The notes under the pieces were generated by a model. The model worked only from the letters and a program-made list of their open reading frames with translations. It had not been told where the DNA came from and ran no database searches. This document shows positions 1,713 through 12,704 of a DNA stretch of 33,901 nt, piece after piece. The first letter of the stretch is position 1, and each line of letters starts with the position of its first letter. The DNA is from a virus (Duplodnaviria; Caudoviricetes): the IMG/VR virus record IMGVR_UViG_3300025635_000093, positions 1-33,901 of that record. One strand, given 5' to 3'. The position numbers were made by a program, and so were the translations under genes.

Positions 1713-1922
1713 ATGAAAACAATTATACAAGAACATTTGGTTTCAGCATTACAAACGTTTTTAGCAACATTTTTAACTACAGTAGGTGCAACGATTTTGC
1801 TTGCAGACAGCATACAATGGACTGCTTCATTTTGGTGTTCAATCCTATTAGTAGGAGTTCGTGCTGGAGTAAAAGAATTGTTTGCACGTTTTGCCTCACC
1901 AAAGCTGGGGGGTAGAATTTAA
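1713..1922 (+). CDS. Holin-like protein, 2 TM helices (69 aa)
   Basis: ATG 1713 preferred to track start 1677; two hydrophobic segments and basic C-terminus; follows peptidases. Confidence 0.65.
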   Translation: MKTIIQEHLVSALQTFLATFLTTVGATILLADSIQWTASFWCSILLVGVRAGVKELFARFASPKLGGRI

Positions 1923-1929
1923 CAAAATA

Positions 1930-2076
1930 ATACACTTCACTTAGCTGTGGAATGCTCTTTCAAACTCGCGGTACAATTTAATAATTTGAATGATAATTAT
2001 GTTTTAAATTTCTGAAGTCAACTATCGCTGTTCGTGACTCGTCCACAGTAGTCACCCTCAGCTAAGTGAGGTGTAT
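1930..2076 (+). ncRNA. Candidate structured RNA with 18-bp stalk
   Basis: 1930-1947 pairs with 2059-2076 (one G-U on + strand); inner stems and a possible pseudoknot. Confidence 0.55.
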
Positions 2077-2083
2077 AAAATAT

Positions 2084-2248
2084 ATGATAAAAAATACAAT
2101 AATTATATTATCAATAATATTTATAGGGTTTCTGTTATTTACATTCTCAAGAACTGCTTCTTATGAAGCTCCAAATGATTCTGTAAGTGCGGTAGAAACA
2201 CCCTACCCTACATTTATTCCTTGTGAAAATGATGGCTGTAAGGGATAA
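2084..2248 (+). CDS. Small exported/membrane-anchored protein (54 aa)
   Basis: MIKNTIIILSIIFIGFLLFTF hydrophobic N-terminus, C-terminal CxxxxC. Confidence 0.55.
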   Translation: MIKNTIIILSIIFIGFLLFTFSRTASYEAPNDSVSAVETPYPTFIPCENDGCKG

Positions 2249-2285
2249 TTAAACGGGAGAAAGATGACTCCCTGATAATCTAATT

Positions 2286-2323
2286 GCAAAATAACCCCCT
2301 ACCGTAAGATAGGGGGCTTTTGC
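2286..2323. terminator. Bidirectional intrinsic terminator
   Basis: CCCCCTA..TAGGGGG stem with A/T tracts on both sides, at the convergence of the two transcription arms. Confidence 0.75.
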
Positions 2324-2325
2324 GT

Positions 2326-2463
2326 TTATGGTCTACAAACTTCAATGTGTCGATATACATGAAATTTGAGATGACACTCTACTGAACACCAGTAGTCACT
2401 GTCTTTGTAGACTGCTTGTGTTAGGAAGAACATACGACCGCATTTGCATTTCATTTGGTACAT
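2326..2463 (-). CDS. 45-aa Cys-rich Zn-finger microprotein (TRASH-like)
   Basis: Hand translation MYQMKCKCGRMFF..YWCSVECHLKF; overlaps end of upstream HNH gene. Confidence 0.55.
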   Translation of the reverse strand: MYQMKCKCGRMFFLTQAVYKDSDYWCSVECHLKFHVYRHIEVCRP

Positions 2464-2720
2464 ATTTTTCTCCTTACACAAATGAATTCGTAATCTCTAT
2501 CCAGCCATTTCTCGTTTAAGATGGCACAGATAGTCGGTGGTGTCAAGTTTGAAAATAGGGCGTGAAAATGCTGGTGGTCTGTCGCCTTCACAATTGAGAT
2601 GTTACTCTCATGATTTGTTCCCCCTAGACTGACACACTTTCTATGGTGTCTGGATTCTCCTTTCTGTATTTTTATTCTTCTAAGACTTTTTGAACCATGC
2701 CTTCTTTGCGAGCGGGACAT
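2451..2720 (-). CDS. Small HNH nuclease
   Basis: HHRK..GGTN..SN..DHQHFH; upstream TGGTATAAT near 2758-2766. Confidence 0.75.
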   Translation of the reverse strand: MSRSQRRHGSKSLRRIKIQKGESRHHRKCVSLGGTNHESNISIVKATDHQHFHALFSNLTPPTICAILNEKWLDRDYEFICVRRKICTK

Positions 2721-2758
2721 AAAAGACCTTTGGTTTAAGTTGTACTAATCTAAATATA

Positions 2759-3388
2759 TTATACCATGCTTCGTATCTTTTTAAGTGTTAGATACGCAGA
2801 CATATTAAAATGTTCACACCACTGGCTTAGTGTCTTTTGTTTATTATGATAAGTTAAAATTAAATTGTCCTTTCTATTATTTGCTTGTTCCTTGTAGGTA
2901 GACCATTTGCAATTGCTTGGTGAATAATTACCAAGACTGTTTATTCTATCAATGGTGGTCTGTTTTATTCCATGTTTTATTGTATGCTTTACATAACTTT
3001 CATACATTAAATCATAAAAAGACTGAAAGTCTTTAAATTCATTTTTTATACCAAGTTTACCGTAAAACCTATACGAAATATGTTTCTTGTTATGACACCT
3101 TTCGTTTAAATTAAAGTATGTTTGGTAAAACCTAGTTCCAAACATTCCATGTTTGTAGTTCCAGTATCTATCAGCTCCTTTGATATGTCCTACCTTCTTT
3201 ATCTGTTCAATAGTATAGCAACCACAACTATTTACGTTTTTATTACTAATATTTTGGTTTAACCTTGTTAGTATCTTTCCACAATCACATTTACAAATGT
3301 ATGCTTTTCTCCATTGTCCACCAACAAAAATTGAATCCGTCTTTTTTATTACAACTAGCCTACCGTATCTTTTGTTTATTTTATCCAT
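2759..3388 (-). CDS. HNH homing endonuclease with N-terminal Cys-rich domain
   Basis: RYGRLVV, CKCDCG, SCGC, IDRIN..GNYSPSNCKW..EQANN; ATG 3388 (MDKINK) preferred. Confidence 0.85.
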   Translation of the reverse strand: MDKINKRYGRLVVIKKTDSIFVGGQWRKAYICKCDCGKILTRLNQNISNKNVNSCGCYTIEQIKKVGHIKGADRYWNYKHGMFGTRFYQTYFNLNERCHNKKHISYRFYGKLGIKNEFKDFQSFYDLMYESYVKHTIKHGIKQTTIDRINSLGNYSPSNCKWSTYKEQANNRKDNLILTYHNKQKTLSQWCEHFNMSAYLTLKKIRSMV

Positions 3389-3484
3389 TGTGAGTATATA
3401 ATAGCACACATCATGGCATTATTATAGCACTATTTATTTACTTTAATGTATGCTACTATATCTACGGATACAGAATTATCCACG

Positions 3485-3796
3485 TTAGTCTTCTCCGCAA
3501 GGAGGTGAACACCTTTCTACAGAATAGGAAGGTGTTTTTTTATTTTCAAGTAAATAACTAATTTCATTTATCAATGGGTGGTTAAATAACTTATTACCTC
3601 TTTTACTATTACAGTCACCACATATCATTCTTATATTAGGAATATAATGTCCAAATATCTTTTTATTCTTTTTAGTCAATATATGACTATACTTTATTTT
3701 AGCTTTATCTAGTTTACGAATATAAGATACAGGCACTATATGGTCTTTAGTTAATTTATCTACCTCTCTTTTGCATAAATTACATACTAATTTCAT
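3485..3796 (-). CDS. HNH endonuclease (CxxC..DHIVP..CxxCN)
   Basis: CNLC, TKDHIVP, NIRMICGDCNSKRG. Confidence 0.85.
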   Translation of the reverse strand: MKLVCNLCKREVDKLTKDHIVPVSYIRKLDKAKIKYSHILTKKNKKIFGHYIPNIRMICGDCNSKRGNKLFNHPLINEISYLLENKKTPSYSVERCSPPCGED

Positions 3797-3802
3797 ATAA
3801 AT

Positions 3803-3852
3803 ATATTAGCATAAGTTATCCACTTCCCTATGTGCATAACTAGGTATACAAT
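3803..3852. promoter_or_regulatory. Divergent promoters with an inverted pair of DnaA-box-like sites
   Basis: TTATCCACT 3816-3824 and TGTGCATAA 3831-3839; TGcTAATAT on - strand (3803-3811), TACAAT on + strand (3847-3852). Confidence 0.55.
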
Positions 3853-3879
3853 TAAATACTGAAAGGGTTCTTTAAAACT

Positions 3880-4074
3880 ATGAGCAAAAATATGAAGATA
3901 GCATGTGACTGCTGTAACGCTATGGTGTTTCAGCACCAACTAACAATATTCAATGGTGAGGGTTACTGCCCTATTTGTACCGACCTCAATGCCGTTATGC
4001 CACAGGCAAGCGAGACAGCACAAACTATCGGGCAAGATACACTACTGCCATTTGAACATCAACACGCAGAATAA
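3880..4074 (+). CDS. Zn-finger microprotein
   Basis: CDCC..YCPIC. Confidence 0.65.
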   Translation: MSKNMKIACDCCNAMVFQHQLTIFNGEGYCPICTDLNAVMPQASETAQTIGQDTLLPFEHQHAE

Positions 4075-4248
4075 ATGCACCTCACTAATCACAAGTGCTT
4101 GAACTGCGGTAAGGTATTCACCTCCGCCGACTTCAAGTATCCTAAGACTGCCGTTAGACATCATCAGAAAGACTACTGTTCACATACTTGTAAGTCAATC
4201 TATGAAATCAAATCTGTTAATTTGGCAATGGAAGCGTGCAAGGTTTAG
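4075..4248 (+). CDS. 57-aa TRASH-like Zn-finger microprotein
   Basis: Hand translation MHLTNHKCLNCGKVF..DYCSHTCK; starts directly after upstream stop. Confidence 0.65.
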   Translation: MHLTNHKCLNCGKVFTSADFKYPKTAVRHHQKDYCSHTCKSIYEIKSVNLAMEACKV

Positions 4249-4316
4249 TCTCATTTTCATGGTGAGCCTCTATCTACTTCTCATATTCATGGCACTTACC
4301 GACCATTATCTTCGGT

Positions 4317-4352
4317 AAAAAACAAAACCCCTATTTACTAGGGGTTATTTTT
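4317..4352. terminator. Bidirectional intrinsic terminator
   Basis: AACCCCTA-TTTAC-TAGGGGTT with T tracts on both strands between convergent genes. Confidence 0.65.
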
Positions 4353-4693
4353 CTGACTACTAATTTATGTGTCATCCTATTGTCTCTCCACCTTGAAGGG
4401 TATGTTGGGTCATAGGCAAGTTTCCCATTCTTATATACAACCATGTGACTATATCTTTTCCATACAAGTGAATCGCCAACTATAATATGTGTTCCTCTCT
4501 TTGGTGGAGTTTTACATAACTCCCACCATACAATATATCCTTTTCTTTTCCAGTAGGAACGAAATCTCTTACTCCAAGACTTTCCGAACTTCACAAACAA
4601 AGGAACATGCTCTGGATGGATATTTAGGTAATAGCCTACACAGTCAGTCATACAACCTTCGTATCTTCGTATGTAACTATCTGTTTTTTTCAT
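4331..4693 (-). CDS. Small papain-fold (C39-like) peptidase candidate
   Basis: GCMTDCV..SHMVVYKNG..YDP gives a Cys/His/Asp order. Confidence 0.55.
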   Translation of the reverse strand: MKKTDSYIRRYEGCMTDCVGYYLNIHPEHVPLFVKFGKSWSKRFRSYWKRKGYIVWWELCKTPPKRGTHIIVGDSLVWKRYSHMVVYKNGKLAYDPTYPSRWRDNRMTHKLVVRKITPSK

Positions 4694-4712
4694 ATTATTT
4701 ATTCTTTTGAAA

Positions 4713-4814
4713 GACAGGGAACTATATTGCAGGATTTTGACACCATAATTCTGTACAGAATTATTGTTGCCCTATTGATTATTCAAGCAAAATCCAACAA
4801 TACAGCTCTCTGGC
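4713..4814 (-). ncRNA. Candidate structured RNA, unit 2 of tandem pair
   Basis: About 27-position imperfect stalk with G-U pairs on - strand, capped by two hairpins joined by TAGGGCAA. Confidence 0.6.
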
Positions 4815-4816
4815 TT

Positions 4817-4926
4817 ACAAATTACTCTCACTATTCTGGGGAGTATGCACTGTAGTTGAAGCTACAAAGTATACTTGCCCATCACGCTGTTTTAATACGT
4901 GCCCCAGAAGAGCAAGAGCAATCTGC
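4817..4926 (-). ncRNA. Candidate structured RNA, unit 1 of tandem pair
   Basis: 25-position stalk (1 mismatch, several G-U), two hairpins joined by ATGGGCAA; -10-like TATTATAAT at 4931-4939. Confidence 0.65.
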
Positions 4927-4956
4927 TTTTATTATAATATATCTTTTTGTTGTTTG

Positions 4957-5124
4957 CTATTTTAGTTGTTTAATCTTATCAATCCACCAATCAGCCATAT
5001 TACCGACTCCAATATATTTCTCATCTCCACTATCATTTGACCACATAATACTATCTGCAAAATCTTGAAATTCTTTTCGCAAATTTTCTTCCCAGTGTGT
5101 TGTTGAATCTTTACTGTGTGTCAT
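4957..5124 (-). CDS. Hypothetical protein (55 aa)
   Basis: Hand translation MTHSKDSTTHWEENLRKEF..ADWWIDKIKQLK; ATGA-coupled. Confidence 0.6.
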   Translation of the reverse strand: MTHSKDSTTHWEENLRKEFQDFADSIMWSNDSGDEKYIGVGNMADWWIDKIKQLK

Positions 5125-5454
5125 TTTAGTTTCCATCCTTCATATTCTCCTAAGTTTGTAAATTCTAGCGGTCTATCTAATGGAACAATATACGCAGGTT
5201 TCACTCCCGCACAATAATCAAGAGCCTCTTTGTAAGGCAATGTATCATTACTGTCTTGAACATCAATAAGCCAGTCACATCCAGAACAACTACCATAACT
5301 ACCTATAAAATAATATAACTTATTTTTGTCTTTTAGAATAGCCAAGTATTCTCCTTGATAGCCTCCATCCTCTTCAAAGCTAACAAGCTCTAAGTCATTA
5401 ATTTTGGGCAATTACTTCTCCATAATTCTCTGCTTTTATTGATGTTTTTTCCAT
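5121..5454 (-). pseudogene. Hypothetical phage gene split by a one-base frameshift
   Basis: ATG 5454 frame stops at 5398 after 18 aa; removing one C from ATT GCC C AAA joins it to the 96-aa track ORF. Confidence 0.55.
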
Positions 5455-5472
5455 TTCTTTTGCTTTATAGGG

Positions 5473-5865
5473 TTAGTCAACTAATTCTTCTAATAATTTA
5501 TTCCAATTACGCTTATCTTTACCGAGGATATAATTTCTACAATATAGATTTTTTATATTCTCAAGTAGTGCCCTGAAATTAAGGTCTTGTGAAGAAGCTC
5601 CCTCAATTAGTCTAGAGTGACCAACCACACCAAGACTGGGACGAATTAAATCATCTAGCAAGTCTCTTTCAAGCGACGTTATTTGACCATCTCTGAATGA
5701 TAGACGTTTTAATATCTCATCAGCTATCTCCATATCTAAGCCAAATAGTTTTTCAAGAGTTTCCTGTTTATTAGTAAACTGAGCAGAGCCTATCATCTGA
5801 TTGTATTGTCGCAATTTAGCAACCAATTCACCGTCTTTCATACTGTTAGCTTCTTTCTTTGTCAT
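5473..5865 (-). CDS. Hypothetical protein
   Basis: 130-aa ORF, ATGA-coupled in operon. Confidence 0.7.
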   Translation of the reverse strand: MTKKEANSMKDGELVAKLRQYNQMIGSAQFTNKQETLEKLFGLDMEIADEILKRLSFRDGQITSLERDLLDDLIRPSLGVVGHSRLIEGASSQDLNFRALLENIKNLYCRNYILGKDKRNWNKLLEELVD

Positions 5866-6287
5866 TTTAATTTATTTAATCCTGCTTTTGTTAATTTAAA
5901 TTCGCCTTTTTCATCGTAGTAACCATGTAAAGCATTTACTGTATAATTCTCATCTCTTGGTGACTCTTTCCTTTCTTTAGCTTTCTTTACTCTATACCGT
6001 GCCTTTATGGTTTCCTTATACTTTTCTCTATACTTATCTACTGCCTCTCTGTTCTTTCTTCTGTACTCCAGTAACTCTTCTTTAGTTTTGCCTCGCCTCT
6101 TTCTGTAATATTCTCTTTCATACTTCCTTACCTTTTCTAAATTCCTTTCTCTGTATAAGCGAGAGTAAAGCATATGCTTAAATCGCTTTTCTTCTGCTGT
6201 CTGCTTTACTCTTTTCTTTCTTACTTTGTGTAACTGTACTTCTGGGTTTTCTTGAAGATATTTTTGTAGTCTTTCTTCTTTGGTCAT
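5862..6287 (-). CDS. Highly basic Lys/Arg/Tyr-rich helical protein, probable nucleic-acid binder
   Basis: Repeated YRERN/YRKRR/YRRKN/YREKY units. Confidence 0.6.
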   Translation of the reverse strand: MTKEERLQKYLQENPEVQLHKVRKKRVKQTAEEKRFKHMLYSRLYRERNLEKVRKYEREYYRKRRGKTKEELLEYRRKNREAVDKYREKYKETIKARYRVKKAKERKESPRDENYTVNALHGYYDEKGEFKLTKAGLNKLK

Positions 6288-6291
6288 TAAA

Positions 6292-6720
6292 TTAGTATAT
6301 CTTTTGTAAAATACTTTCTACTAATTTCTCGCACAGGTATGTGTATGCTTCTTCGCTTTCTTTGGTTAGTGTTATACCTGCATTTGTAAGTACATAGTGA
6401 GTAAGGTGTAGACATTCGTGAGTAACCAGTCCAACGGTATCAACCAAATCACCACAGTGTGATATGAGCATAATATAACCTTTAGGTAGTTTCGTGTACA
6501 ACCTACCCCCTCCATCCATCTCATAATCATCTTTGTAAAGCTCTGCATTTTCTGAAACGTGCTTTTGAACCAATAGTGAGTTAGCCGTCTTATGCTTTTT
6601 TATTTCATTTAAAGCGTCAGAAAACTGTCCATTTACTACGACAATACAATCTTGGCTATATGGTTCTACGCTTAGAATAAATACAATTTTCTTTCCTATT
6701 TTTCTATTTTCTTTTTTCAT
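6292..6720 (-). CDS. Zincin-like HExxH protein
   Basis: VTHECLH..EEAYTYL. Confidence 0.65.
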   Translation of the reverse strand: MKKENRKIGKKIVFILSVEPYSQDCIVVVNGQFSDALNEIKKHKTANSLLVQKHVSENAELYKDDYEMDGGGRLYTKLPKGYIMLISHCGDLVDTVGLVTHECLHLTHYVLTNAGITLTKESEEAYTYLCEKLVESILQKIY

Positions 6721-6732
6721 ATTTTCATATTT

Positions 6733-6828
6733 TTAATCCTCTGGTACTTCTCCTAACTTAGCATTTTTTAGGACTATATATGTTATTACTAGAAATACTA
6801 TTAGTGCAATTATTAGTATATTTTCCAT
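6733..6828 (-). CDS. 31-aa single-TM microprotein
   Basis: MENILIIALIVFLVITYIVLKNAKLGEVPED; tightly packed in operon. Confidence 0.55.
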   Translation of the reverse strand: MENILIIALIVFLVITYIVLKNAKLGEVPED

Positions 6829-6829
6829 C

Positions 6830-6919
6830 TTATTTAATTAATTTTATAACCTCAACTGTTAATGCTATGTAAACTATACTCACTGTAACTGTTAGAAGAA
6901 GTTTTTGAGGGGTGGACAT
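6830..6919 (-). CDS. 29-aa single-TM microprotein
   Basis: MSTPQKLLLTVTVSIVYIALTVEVIKLIK; 1-nt gaps to both neighbours. Confidence 0.5.
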   Translation of the reverse strand: MSTPQKLLLTVTVSIVYIALTVEVIKLIK

Positions 6920-6920
6920 A

Positions 6921-7091
6921 TTATTTCATAATTAAATCCTCTGTCTCGTTATAAAATTCCCTTCTAGCTAGTACAAAATCATTCCTTGCTTTCTTTAATT
7001 CCTTTGAGGCTTCATCATACTTGTTACTAGCATTCACAAATTCCTGTCTTGTTTTTTTTAACTGTTCTAATGTATCTATTTGTTTATACAT
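6921..7091 (-). CDS. 56-aa coiled-coil microprotein
   Basis: MYKQIDTLEQLKKTRQEF..ARREFYNETEDLIMK. Confidence 0.6.
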   Translation of the reverse strand: MYKQIDTLEQLKKTRQEFVNASNKYDEASKELKKARNDFVLARREFYNETEDLIMK

Positions 7092-7539: not shown

Positions 7540-7689
7540 CTAAAACGGAAATCTACTCATGTAATCATCTATCAATTCTCTTACTAATTCGCTTACTGAC
7601 TGCTTATTTCTCTTTGCTACCTTATTCAAGTATTTTATTTGAGCAGGTAGTAGTAAAGGTCTTAAATATTTATATTTCTTTGTTGCCAT
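7540..7689 (-). CDS. Ribbon-helix-helix (CopG/Arc-like) regulator, 49 aa
   Basis: MATKKYKYLRPLLLPAQIKYLNKVAKRNKQSVSELVRELIDDYMSRFPF; L..AK....SVSELVR..I..Y pattern. Confidence 0.75.
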   Translation of the reverse strand: MATKKYKYLRPLLLPAQIKYLNKVAKRNKQSVSELVRELIDDYMSRFPF

Positions 7690-10747: not shown

Positions 10748-11101
10748 TTATTTCAGTAATTTAATTTCTGATAGTGGGATATTTGTCTTTTCTGGAAAAT
10801 TTATTGCAGTATCTTTAGCCAAGTAAAGAATGTCTCGTATTTCTTTGTCTATCCCTTTTTGCTTCAGTTGGTTAAAATCATCTCCATCTAGTTGGTGGTC
10901 GTCATTCCATCCCATCGTTGCATTATAATCAGGTTCTATCCCTTGAATGCTACTACCTAATAAAGCAACTCCATTACTAAATACTCCTCTTTGGTCTGGA
11001 TTTAAGAATAAATAGTAAGCTTTATGAGCTTCATCAGCGTTTATTGTGTAATGTTGGTCTTTTCTAAAACCTGTTATAAGTTTAATTTTAAATTTATTCA
11101 T
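10748..11101 (-). CDS. Hypothetical protein coupled to replication initiator
   Basis: 117 aa, ATGA overlap; occupies the lambda-P position but has no recognisable motif. Confidence 0.7.
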   Translation of the reverse strand: MNKFKIKLITGFRKDQHYTINADEAHKAYYLFLNPDQRGVFSNGVALLGSSIQGIEPDYNATMGWNDDHQLDGDDFNQLKQKGIDKEIRDILYLAKDTAINFPEKTNIPLSEIKLLK

Positions 11102-11829
11102 GTGAATGCTATTTTTGGTTTCTTCTCTTTAATAATATTTTTATTCTGTTCTATAAATGCTAGTAACTTTCCTAAATTCTTTTCTAGTTCATACGGGGTA
11201 GTAATTCTTGGGGCATAGGGCTTGGTAATAATTTCTTGTAAAGCATTTGCTGTAGAAATCATTTTATCTAGCGAGTACTTCTGAATTAGTCTTACTGACG
11301 CTTTAATTTCTGTGGTATTACCAAATAACCTCTGATACGAAGGATTTACTTCTTTAAAGGAATTAATAAACAAACTAACATCCTGCGGACGCAGTCCGCC
11401 GTATATATCTATTGTATTAGTTTCTTTGTTTCTATTGTTAGTATGCGTTTGACTACTACTTTTGGTAGTCGTTTGACTACTGGGTAGTATGCGTTTGACT
11501 ACTGGGGGTAGTCGTTTGACTACTACCCACTCATCGTAATTCTGATTAAATTTATAGCTATTTTCTTTCTTTAGTAGTATGCGTTTGACTACTAACGATT
11601 TAAGCGATTTAGCCACATTACCATGCTTCATAGTAGTAAGCTTCTCAAATTGAGATAGAGAAATCCAGTCCCAATCCTTGTGTCTGTCACCATCTTTCCA
11701 TCCCCAAGTCTTACGCCAAACAACCCATACTATTCTCATTTCTGAACTAGGAATACTAAGTGTTGCAAACTTTTCTACTAGTTCTGTCGCGATTGATACA
11801 TAACCATTTTTTAATGCTGGATTAGCCAT
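11098..11829 (-). CDS. Replication initiator, lambda O-like N-terminal wHTH
   Basis: MANP..NGYVSIA..RKTWGW..DWISLSQF; internal iterons; ATG 11829 preferred to 11913. Confidence 0.85.
   Translation of the reverse strand: MANPALKNGYVSIATELVEKFATLSIPSSEMRIVWVVWRKTWGWKDGDRHKDWDWISLSQFEKLTTMKHGNVAKSLKSLVVKRILLKKENSYKFNQNYDEWVVVKRLPPVVKRILPSSQTTTKSSSQTHTNNRNKETNTIDIYGGLRPQDVSLFINSFKEVNPSYQRLFGNTTEIKASVRLIQKYSLDKMISTANALQEIITKPYAPRITTPYELEKNLGKLLAFIEQNKNIIKEKKPKIAFT
11439..11593. repeat. Replication origin iterons (5 copies)
   Basis: CGTTTGACTACT at 11446, 11470, 11492, 11513, 11582, flanked by AT-rich tracts, inside initiator gene. Confidence 0.85.
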
Positions 11830-11977
11830 GACATTCTTTATTAGTTGATTGTTCTGGCGGAGATATCTTTTTTGTCTCAAACCAATATAATCTATTACAG
11901 TGTATACATTCATAGACTAGAAAGCCTAATTCCTTTTCTATTAAAAGCGGTAACAAAACATGTTCTTTTATTTTCAT
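11822..11977 (-). CDS. 51-aa protein with CxxC, first gene after hairpin RNA
   Basis: MKIKEHV..YECIHCNRLYW; stop overlaps initiator start. Confidence 0.55.
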   Translation of the reverse strand: MKIKEHVLLPLLIEKELGFLVYECIHCNRLYWFETKKISPPEQSTNKECHG

Positions 11978-11987
11978 ATATTTTATA

Positions 11988-12052
11988 GGCAAAAGGTAGC
12001 AGTACACTGGAACTCCCCGACTAAAGGGAATGATGTACTACTACCTGCTGCC
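11988..12052 (-). ncRNA. Candidate CI/C4-like antisense regulatory RNA
   Basis: 13-bp stalk plus basal stem, 8-nt loop and 6-7-nt bulge complementary to leader sites 12074-12080 and 12087-12092. Confidence 0.6.
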
Positions 12053-12100
12053 AACAAAATTATTAAGTTGTTATTAGTCGTATTGTGTTCCATACATAGT

Positions 12101-12182
12101 ATTATACCTCATTTAAAAATAAATCAAGCAAAATAGTTATCCACACCCCCTCACTATACAAGTAAGCATACTAGTGTATACT
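12101..12182. promoter_or_regulatory. Divergent promoters with DnaA box and operator
   Basis: - strand TATAAT 12101-12106; TTATCCACA 12137-12145; AGTAAGCATACT 12161-12172; + strand TATACT 12177-12182. Confidence 0.7.
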
Positions 12183-12215
12183 TATAGCAGGGTTAGAAAT
12201 AAAAAAATAAAACAT

Positions 12216-12704
12216 ATGAAATATACAAAAGTGTTCTTTGGAGATAAGAGATTAAAAGATGTGGTTGTAGGAGCTACAAAGTGGCAGGTATTCAAATACA
12301 GGTTTGTTAAGATGGTTAGAAAGGTTGCAATAGCCTCTTTCATTATAGGGTTAGTTTATGGTTCATTTCATTTAGGTAGAAAAACTACTCAACCAGAGGT
12401 AGTATTTGCAGATAGAGAGGTTATGGTTGAAGTTGAAAAGGAGTCGCCAGTACTTAAGAGAATAGCGGTATGTGAAAGTGGTGGTAGTCACTATAACAAA
12501 GATGGACAAGTTATAATGAGAGCTAATACAAACGGAACTGTTGATACAGGCAAGTTTCAAATCAATTCTGTATGGAATAAAAAGGCAGGCGAAATGAAAT
12601 TAGATTTAACAAAGGAGGCTGATAATGAAACATTTGCTAAGTGGCTATACGCTAATAAGGGTACAGAGCCGTGGTATTCATCAAAGACATGTTGGAATAA
12701 GTAA
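12216..12704 (+). CDS. Membrane-anchored lysozyme-fold lytic transglycosylase (SLT-like)
   Basis: TM helix, then IAVCESGG..DTGKFQIN..W..N..A.WLY..G.EPW. Confidence 0.8.
   Translation: MKYTKVFFGDKRLKDVVVGATKWQVFKYRFVKMVRKVAIASFIIGLVYGSFHLGRKTTQPEVVFADREVMVEVEKESPVLKRIAVCESGGSHYNKDGQVIMRANTNGTVDTGKFQINSVWNKKAGEMKLDLTKEADNETFAKWLYANKGTEPWYSSKTCWNK

Follow-up and report, generated by a model that had tools for sequence, protein, structure and literature searches.

The window, which is the whole stretch of DNA analyzed here (33,901 nt), constitutes an entire phage genome of 33.9 kb, 100% complete and carrying direct terminal repeats. In a scan of 52 of its proteins, the plus strand carried the terminase, head, and tail genes, and the minus strand a replication/recombination operon. 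The first large gene of this operon encodes a lambda O-like replication initiator (here called rep), whose MANP start at 11829 is fixed by conservation in homologues. The leader upstream of rep contains a small upstream open reading frame (uORF) that runs through a long hairpin, along with the following features:

12101..12106, minus strand: −10 box TATAAT, 7 nt before the uORF ATG, suggesting a leaderless start; no −35 match
12087..12092, minus strand: target a, TGGAAC, overlapping the uORF start codon
12074..12080, minus strand: target b, CGACTAA, the variable specificity segment
11983..12093, minus strand: uORF of 36 codons, probably leaderless, which traverses the hairpin and stops 5 nt short of the next ATG
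11988..12052, minus strand: hairpin of 65 nt, extending to 11980-12060 and ending 2 nt before the next ATG
12034-12046 and 11994-12006, minus strand: arms of the hairpin stalk
12018..12024, minus strand: loop b′, TTAGTCG, complement of b
12008..12013, minus strand: bulge a′, GTTCCA, complement of a, with 4 bases predicted to be unpaired
11991..11994, minus strand: short U run after the core stem, a weak terminator-like tail
11838..11854, minus strand: degenerate repeat of the leader site, separated from the rep ATG (11829) by 8 nt
11822..11977, minus strand: 51-aa ORF between hairpin and rep, its stop overlapping the rep start; no Pfam match
11098..11829, minus strand: rep, the lambda O-like initiator gene, 243 aa when counted from the conserved MANP start (PF04492, E 1.2e-17; PHROG 277)
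11439..11594, no strand assigned: five 20-nt repeats inside rep, likely origin iterons

Every letter and coordinate that an earlier note on this DNA had given for the leader and hairpin was returned on recheck. At −37.1 kcal/mol, the hairpin lies well outside what chance would give (z −6.88, 0/200 shuffles), and its opposite strand also folds (z −4.83). The proposal that loop and bulge expose exact complements of the two leader segments holds as far as complementarity is concerned, but the predicted fold leaves no more than 6 of 7 loop bases and 4 of 6 bulge bases open. Within this genome alone, the duplex between leader and hairpin apex is not significant against shuffles (p 0.10), and the proof of pairing therefore comes from relatives. 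A genome scan found no perfect second target elsewhere, the next best placement (score 12) lying inside a tail gene. The U run of the window has only 4 T and drew no call from a terminator scan, and the covarying outer stem continues beyond it. A two-hexamer promoter scan missed the TATAAT at 12101-12106; the same scan listed no plus-strand promoter-like site between 10500 and 12154. No processing signal was identified, and reading the CCA of the bulge as an RNase P signal is unneeded, since a segment complementary to the region of the start codon will contain it anyway.

Several other features of the surroundings bear mention. The role of the five 20-nt repeats in rep as origin iterons is our assumption from the lambda ori; two of the five are near-palindromic. 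Short words are common to these repeats and to the hairpin stalk and b segment, probably by chance, because one relative (L082) has the stalk but a different initiator. Divergent from the element lies a lysozyme/transglycosylase-like gene (12174-12704, plus strand, weak Pfam match), and similar genes were seen by eye upstream of the element in L007, L015, and L026. Gene starts are A-rich across the window, and none of the 39 genes checked has a Shine-Dalgarno (SD) motif.

Rep-based searches yielded 21 loci, the window's own contig included, and five more came from genomes. After removal of L025, which has no DNA upstream, and of the duplicates L018, L021, and L029, 23 loci remained, of which 21 have a long hairpin in the leader; the element is absent from L031 (137 nt of upstream DNA only) and L034. 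Since hairpin cores were set by hand after the sequences had been seen and the automatic pick for L017 was overridden, this set of 21 leaders is not blind, and some of its loci are related (L010/L011, L020/L022). Across the set, the summed duplex energy of cognate pairs was −446 kcal/mol versus −285 ± 16 kcal/mol under permutation (0/20,000 permutations), and a two-segment score was 283 versus 191 ± 9 (likewise 0/20,000). The signal per locus is modest, with the cognate leader ranking first in 5/21 by energy and 12/21 by segment score, and L013 has no 5-nt Watson-Crick match between segments.

A stronger test is the blind search with a scaffold DNA pattern that specifies neither b nor b′. Three of its 51 matches had the hairpin (L001 again, L055, and L082), and a second scaffold pattern returned the same three real ones among 53 matches. 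In the two close relatives found blind, loop and target had both changed together. The b/b′ pairs of the four scaffold relatives (the window, L001, L055, and L082) are CGACTAA/TTAGTCG, CGATCAA/TTGATCG, TCGCTAA/TTAGCGA, and TCGCGAA/TTCGCGA; complementarity is 7/7 in all four, compared with 2 to 6 of 7 across phages, and, of these four leaders, each apex pairs best with its own. In alignment A2, five of the seven b/b′ pairs changed on both sides, the stems covary too, and compensatory pairs number 13 overall versus 5.5 in shuffles (0/500). Covariation of loop and bulge with the upstream targets, which the earlier note had put forward as a check, is thus borne out by the permutations, the blind set, and A2, and on these comparisons we conclude that the leader-hairpin complementarity is real and under selection. 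Furthermore, folding is better for the rep-sense strand in 21 of 23 cases, and this strand has the excess of G-U pairs (86 versus 18), which points to RNA.

The hairpin takes branched forms in L007, L008, L030, and L033. In L020 and L022, a′ lies 5′ of b′ and the two are paired together in the upper stem, and both still covary with their targets. This order sits poorly with one simple duplex and suggests strand invasion or a junction instead. A model built from the four scaffold relatives and run over 45 sources recovered L012, L026, L015, and L017 at E<0.001 and L013 weakly (E 0.03). These make up a homologous core of nine members, and the other 14 follow the same logic without detectable homology. 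Used as a pattern in viral contigs, the window's own loop and target gave five matches, none with the architecture or a model match, while a back-translated rep start pattern returned only two contigs already known. Eight more distant PF04492-like loci (L088-L094 and L096) showed no element by reading or model, a PF04492 search of a 7-genome class gave no match, and blastn against phage and plasmid collections gave no match. The RNA model also gave no match over 150 genomes of the phylum of G001, a scan that is uninformative because it missed the known member L026, held in G001 itself.

The uORF is among the best conserved parts of the element, and the 36-codon ORF that had been noted across the hairpin can be accepted; its product has no Pfam or PHROG match. 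An ATG located 20 to 55 nt before the stem opens a frame to or past the end of the hairpin in 16 of 21 loci (1.7 expected). With L055 and L082 added, the uORF is open through the hairpin in 18 of the 21 loci that have the ATG, against 4.6 expected when the ATG is held fixed. Across relatives, the complementary segments a and b overlap or flank this ATG, and a −10-like box lies 5 to 8 nt before it in 11/18 leaders, compared with 93/1345 background ATGs (6.9%). Relative to the next ATG, the uORF stop falls between −8 and +7 nt in 11/18 leaders, often 5 to 7 nt ahead of the following gene; in L007, L016, L017, L020, L022, and L030 it is reached at the 3′ arm, and the distance to the next ATG is 24 to 99 nt, and in L008 the uORF continues over the rep start. 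Five of the 23 leaders (L010, L011, L014, L024, and L032) have no read-through ATG uORF, and in these a 5′ segment is a direct match to part of a terminator-like hairpin, either its loop or its 3′ arm.

The element precedes initiators of the PF04492, replisome-organizer-like, NrS-1-type primase-polymerase, HTH_36, and DnaD-like kinds. In L055 it stands ahead of a replisome-organizer-like gene (weak, E 0.007), in L082 ahead of an NrS-1-type primase-polymerase, and in L032 and L033 ahead of HTH_36 and DnaD-like initiators. A 2581-nt contig in run X1 (probably DNA) matches the window only over 11972-12094, with 3 differences in 123 nt, no listed difference in the loop, and unrelated flanks. Since this copy matches the span from the uORF ATG to the next ATG between unrelated flanks, that span is the unit of exchange. 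Beyond the junction, 30 letters read by eye resemble, in frame, the start of a P0057/P0058-type O-like protein. The slot 3′ of the hairpin is filled by unrelated small ORFs in many members, and an HNH-like ORF (by eye) lies between hairpin and rep in L030, L013, and L033.

Searches of the window for a tyrosine integrase, resolvase, or HTH_3 repressor found none, none scored above cutoff in four related records (one of them complete), and no partition gene was found among the 52 window proteins scanned. The window does carry a small ribbon-helix-helix gene (49 aa, 7540-7689, minus strand), with an RHH_1 match at cutoff (E 0.00045), and similar small genes were seen by eye in L055 (667-858, minus strand) and, just upstream of the element, in L082. 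Such genes are a possible protein layer of control, and given their presence in this phage, control by RNA only is not required. As for the host, the location of L026 in a Saccharibacteria MAG and the presence of a related rep in 5 of 401 genomes of that phylum make Patescibacteria likely. The three contigs examined are free phage sequences; of their 88 ORFs of ≥130 aa, 65 were screened, and none was an integrase. A related phage contig, L150, has a queuosine-pathway cluster (Tgt-like, QueC, FolE, QueE, and QueD; 1790-7074), which likely serves DNA modification.

The earlier note had likened this locus to the P4 CI and P1 C4 RNAs, a kinship that Rfam does not support: the C4, c4-2, and IsrK models gave no match at E≤5 in the window between 10500 and 13500 and none at E≤1 in 17 related loci, and we regard the matches to snoJ33 (E 0.047, far below gathering score) and PYLIS_4 as chance. 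P4 CI is described as being processed from the leader, pairing with seqA and seqC, and ending transcription of the replication genes (PMC4825925). Like P4 CI, the element has same-strand antisense segments inside the leader of a replication operon that pair upstream in that leader (PMC4825925, PMC3632133), and RNA would take the place of a repressor protein. Unlike P4 CI, it lacks a conserved downstream target, an integrase, and a C4/IsrK Rfam match, its hairpin either has a U run at its end or directly adjoins the next start, and its target overlaps the start of a probably leaderless uORF. With C4 of P1/P7 (RF01695) it has in common two short exposed segments, here a′ and b′, and specificity set by a few loop bases (PMC5320573, PMC8198154, PMC2864571), as well as the proposed block of a small ORF lying ahead of the gene under control. 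As these sources present it, however, C4 comprises three stem-loops (about 77 nt) with an RNase P cut and gates an antirepressor under C1 control by blocking the downstream icd start, whereas the element is one stalk with loop and bulge, would gate an initiator, and would block an ORF that starts upstream and traverses the antisense hairpin. The element thus lies outside C4/CI by model match, fold, and second target, and within it by two-segment upstream complementarity.

A further likeness is to repY/repZ of plasmid ColIb-P9, where initiator translation is coupled to a leader peptide whose translation melts an inhibitory hairpin, and where a cis pseudoknot competes with antisense binding, as we propose here (PMC4705826). 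The position of the uORF stop beside the initiator or next start, in the 11 of 18 leaders given above, is what such leader-peptide control of rep calls for. The tap/repA leader of plasmid R1 controls its initiator in the same way. The antisense RNA of ColIb-P9 and R1 is a separate counter-transcript, whereas the element has its complement on the same strand and makes no use of an SD motif (0/39 genes). By analogy, the element would work like P4 CI or P1 C4 combined with plasmid leader-peptide control (see also PMC5737381). A literature search, with most primary P4 and P1 papers beyond its reach, found no published description of the element. It is possible that the element was listed computationally as DNAVirus_4859, a 106-nt candidate structure from freshwater and marine viruses with no host given, which lies at most 25 bp from HTH_36/Phage_rep_O genes (Fremin et al. 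2023, PMC10690425). In the accessible part of that source it is listed without function and with 1 covarying base, and our comparison is by listing rather than by alignment.

Sequence comparison supplies the hairpin, the loop/target covariation, the open uORF, the stop beside the next start, and the placement before initiators. The reading we prefer, with a probability of about one half, is that the leader is a self-targeting RNA switch, in which translation of the uORF melts the hairpin and couples to rep, and hairpin RNA acting in trans blocks the uORF start. Transcription would start at the uORF ATG; leaderless mRNAs are described as being initiated by direct 70S binding at a 5′ AUG (PMC3177188). 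A ribosome on the probably leaderless uORF would open the hairpin and then reinitiate at the next start, 2 nt past it. In members with a weak U run, such as the window, the ON state would be this translational coupling, and in members with a strong U run it would be read-through of a terminator, with termination prevented by the ribosome. Transient cis pairing of a/b with a′/b′ may also disfavor the stem while the 3′ arm is being made. Prefix folds gave the a/b:a′/b′ structure at 76 and 88 to 92 nt, the hairpin winning from 96 nt, so that a/b would catch a′/b′ just before the 3′ arm is complete, acting in the same direction as the ribosome. In the OFF state, hairpin RNA from terminated or processed transcripts would bind a/b of new transcripts in trans, blocking both coupling and read-through; without processing, the leader might sequester the hairpin RNA attached to it. 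The outcome would be delayed negative feedback on initiator synthesis, specific to phages with a common b loop, and might amount to a replication throttle and superinfection exclusion. We give the trans model this weight because the loop turns over on a fixed scaffold like a specificity element and no other input is visible. The wider idea of an RNA gate on replication in a phage without cI is partly upheld: the element precedes initiators, the sense strand folds better in 21/23, and no HTH_3 repressor was found, but the ribbon-helix-helix gene is present.

Loop/target covariation fits cis pairing and trans pairing equally, and a switch acting in cis only, where a/b pair with a′/b′ on the same molecule and neither diffusible RNA nor immunity is involved, would account for all of it. 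We judge such a switch less likely, though it is the rival to be taken most seriously. It could be a transient antiterminator or a slow pseudoknot that closes the uORF start and thereby limits the burst of initiator per transcript. Prefix folding favors cis pairing, with cognate sequences above the shuffled mean in 23/23 leaders and p<0.05 in 8/23; no target is more than about 50 nt upstream of the stem; the 3′ arm itself is what the target matches in L014, L016, and L024, as would suit an antiterminator; and a cis pseudoknot following leader-peptide translation is described for ColIb-P9 (PMC4705826). However, cis pairing offers no reason for the b loop to turn over in four close relatives while scaffold and a stay fixed. 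Such a switch would also need an input, the only one visible being an RNA competitor, and two exposed segments on a stable stalk are what C4 is described as using in trans (PMC5320573).

The earlier note had gone further, proposing a processed CI-like RNA that needs both the upstream target and a second, seqC-like target at 11838-11854. The parallel with P4 CI pairing at seqA and seqC (PMC4825925) speaks for this, as does the leader-like repeat that ends 8 nt ahead of the rep ATG, which is weak (p 0.036, uncorrected). However, pairing of this copy with the hairpin was no better than that of shuffles (p 0.43 by energy, p 0.29 by segment score), and its score of 10 in the genome scan is reached or exceeded by 46 minus-strand placements, the leader scoring 13. 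The downstream windows of 21 relatives were at chance level, with p<0.05 in 1/21 by energy, 0/21 by segment score, and 2/21 for repeats. Furthermore, the initiator follows directly after the hairpin in L001, L055, and L082, and the X1 copy lacks the 11838-11854 stretch. The second target is therefore not conserved, the downstream copy is probably incidental, and the full model is improbable. The 51-aa ORF that contains the copy is a possible coupling link to rep and is likewise not conserved, being absent from L001, L055, L082, and the X1 contig.

Still less probable is a plain terminator or attenuator that senses uORF translation, with the complementarity as a folding aid and control left to a protein repressor such as the product of the gene at 7540-7689. 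U-rich tails follow the hairpin in most members (4 to 8 T in 8 nt, a partly circular count because cores were cut at the T run), reaching 7 or 8 T of 8 in 8/23, and the RHH_1 match at cutoff would suit a repressor, but this account leaves unexplained both the permutation results and the 7/7 compensatory complementarity of the four scaffold relatives. Finally, a DNA-level structure (a cruciform or a priming signal near the origin) or chance is very improbable: the element adjoins an initiator with iteron-like repeats and its opposite strand folds too (z −4.83), but stability and G-U pairs favor one strand, and the uORF and the loop-target covariation have no DNA reading.

Taking the preferred switch together with its distribution, we tentatively suggest that the element is a swappable module of 120 nt, probably of Patescibacteria phages, whose hairpin would serve both as a ribosome/terminator gate and as a diffusible antisense to its own leaderless uORF. 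It would provide protein-free control and a loop-encoded exclusion code to non-integrating phages with any initiator family. For the replication control and life style of small non-integrating phages of uncultured, SD-less hosts, the element represents a concrete, testable control unit that unrelated initiators have in common and that is exchanged in one piece. Should it act in cis only, it would still be an uncatalogued family of phage leaders. If it acts in trans, its 7-nt loop would define exclusion groups readable from sequence, would suggest a carrier or throttled state that involves neither integrase nor repressor, and may offer a minimal set of naturally orthogonal RNA switches.
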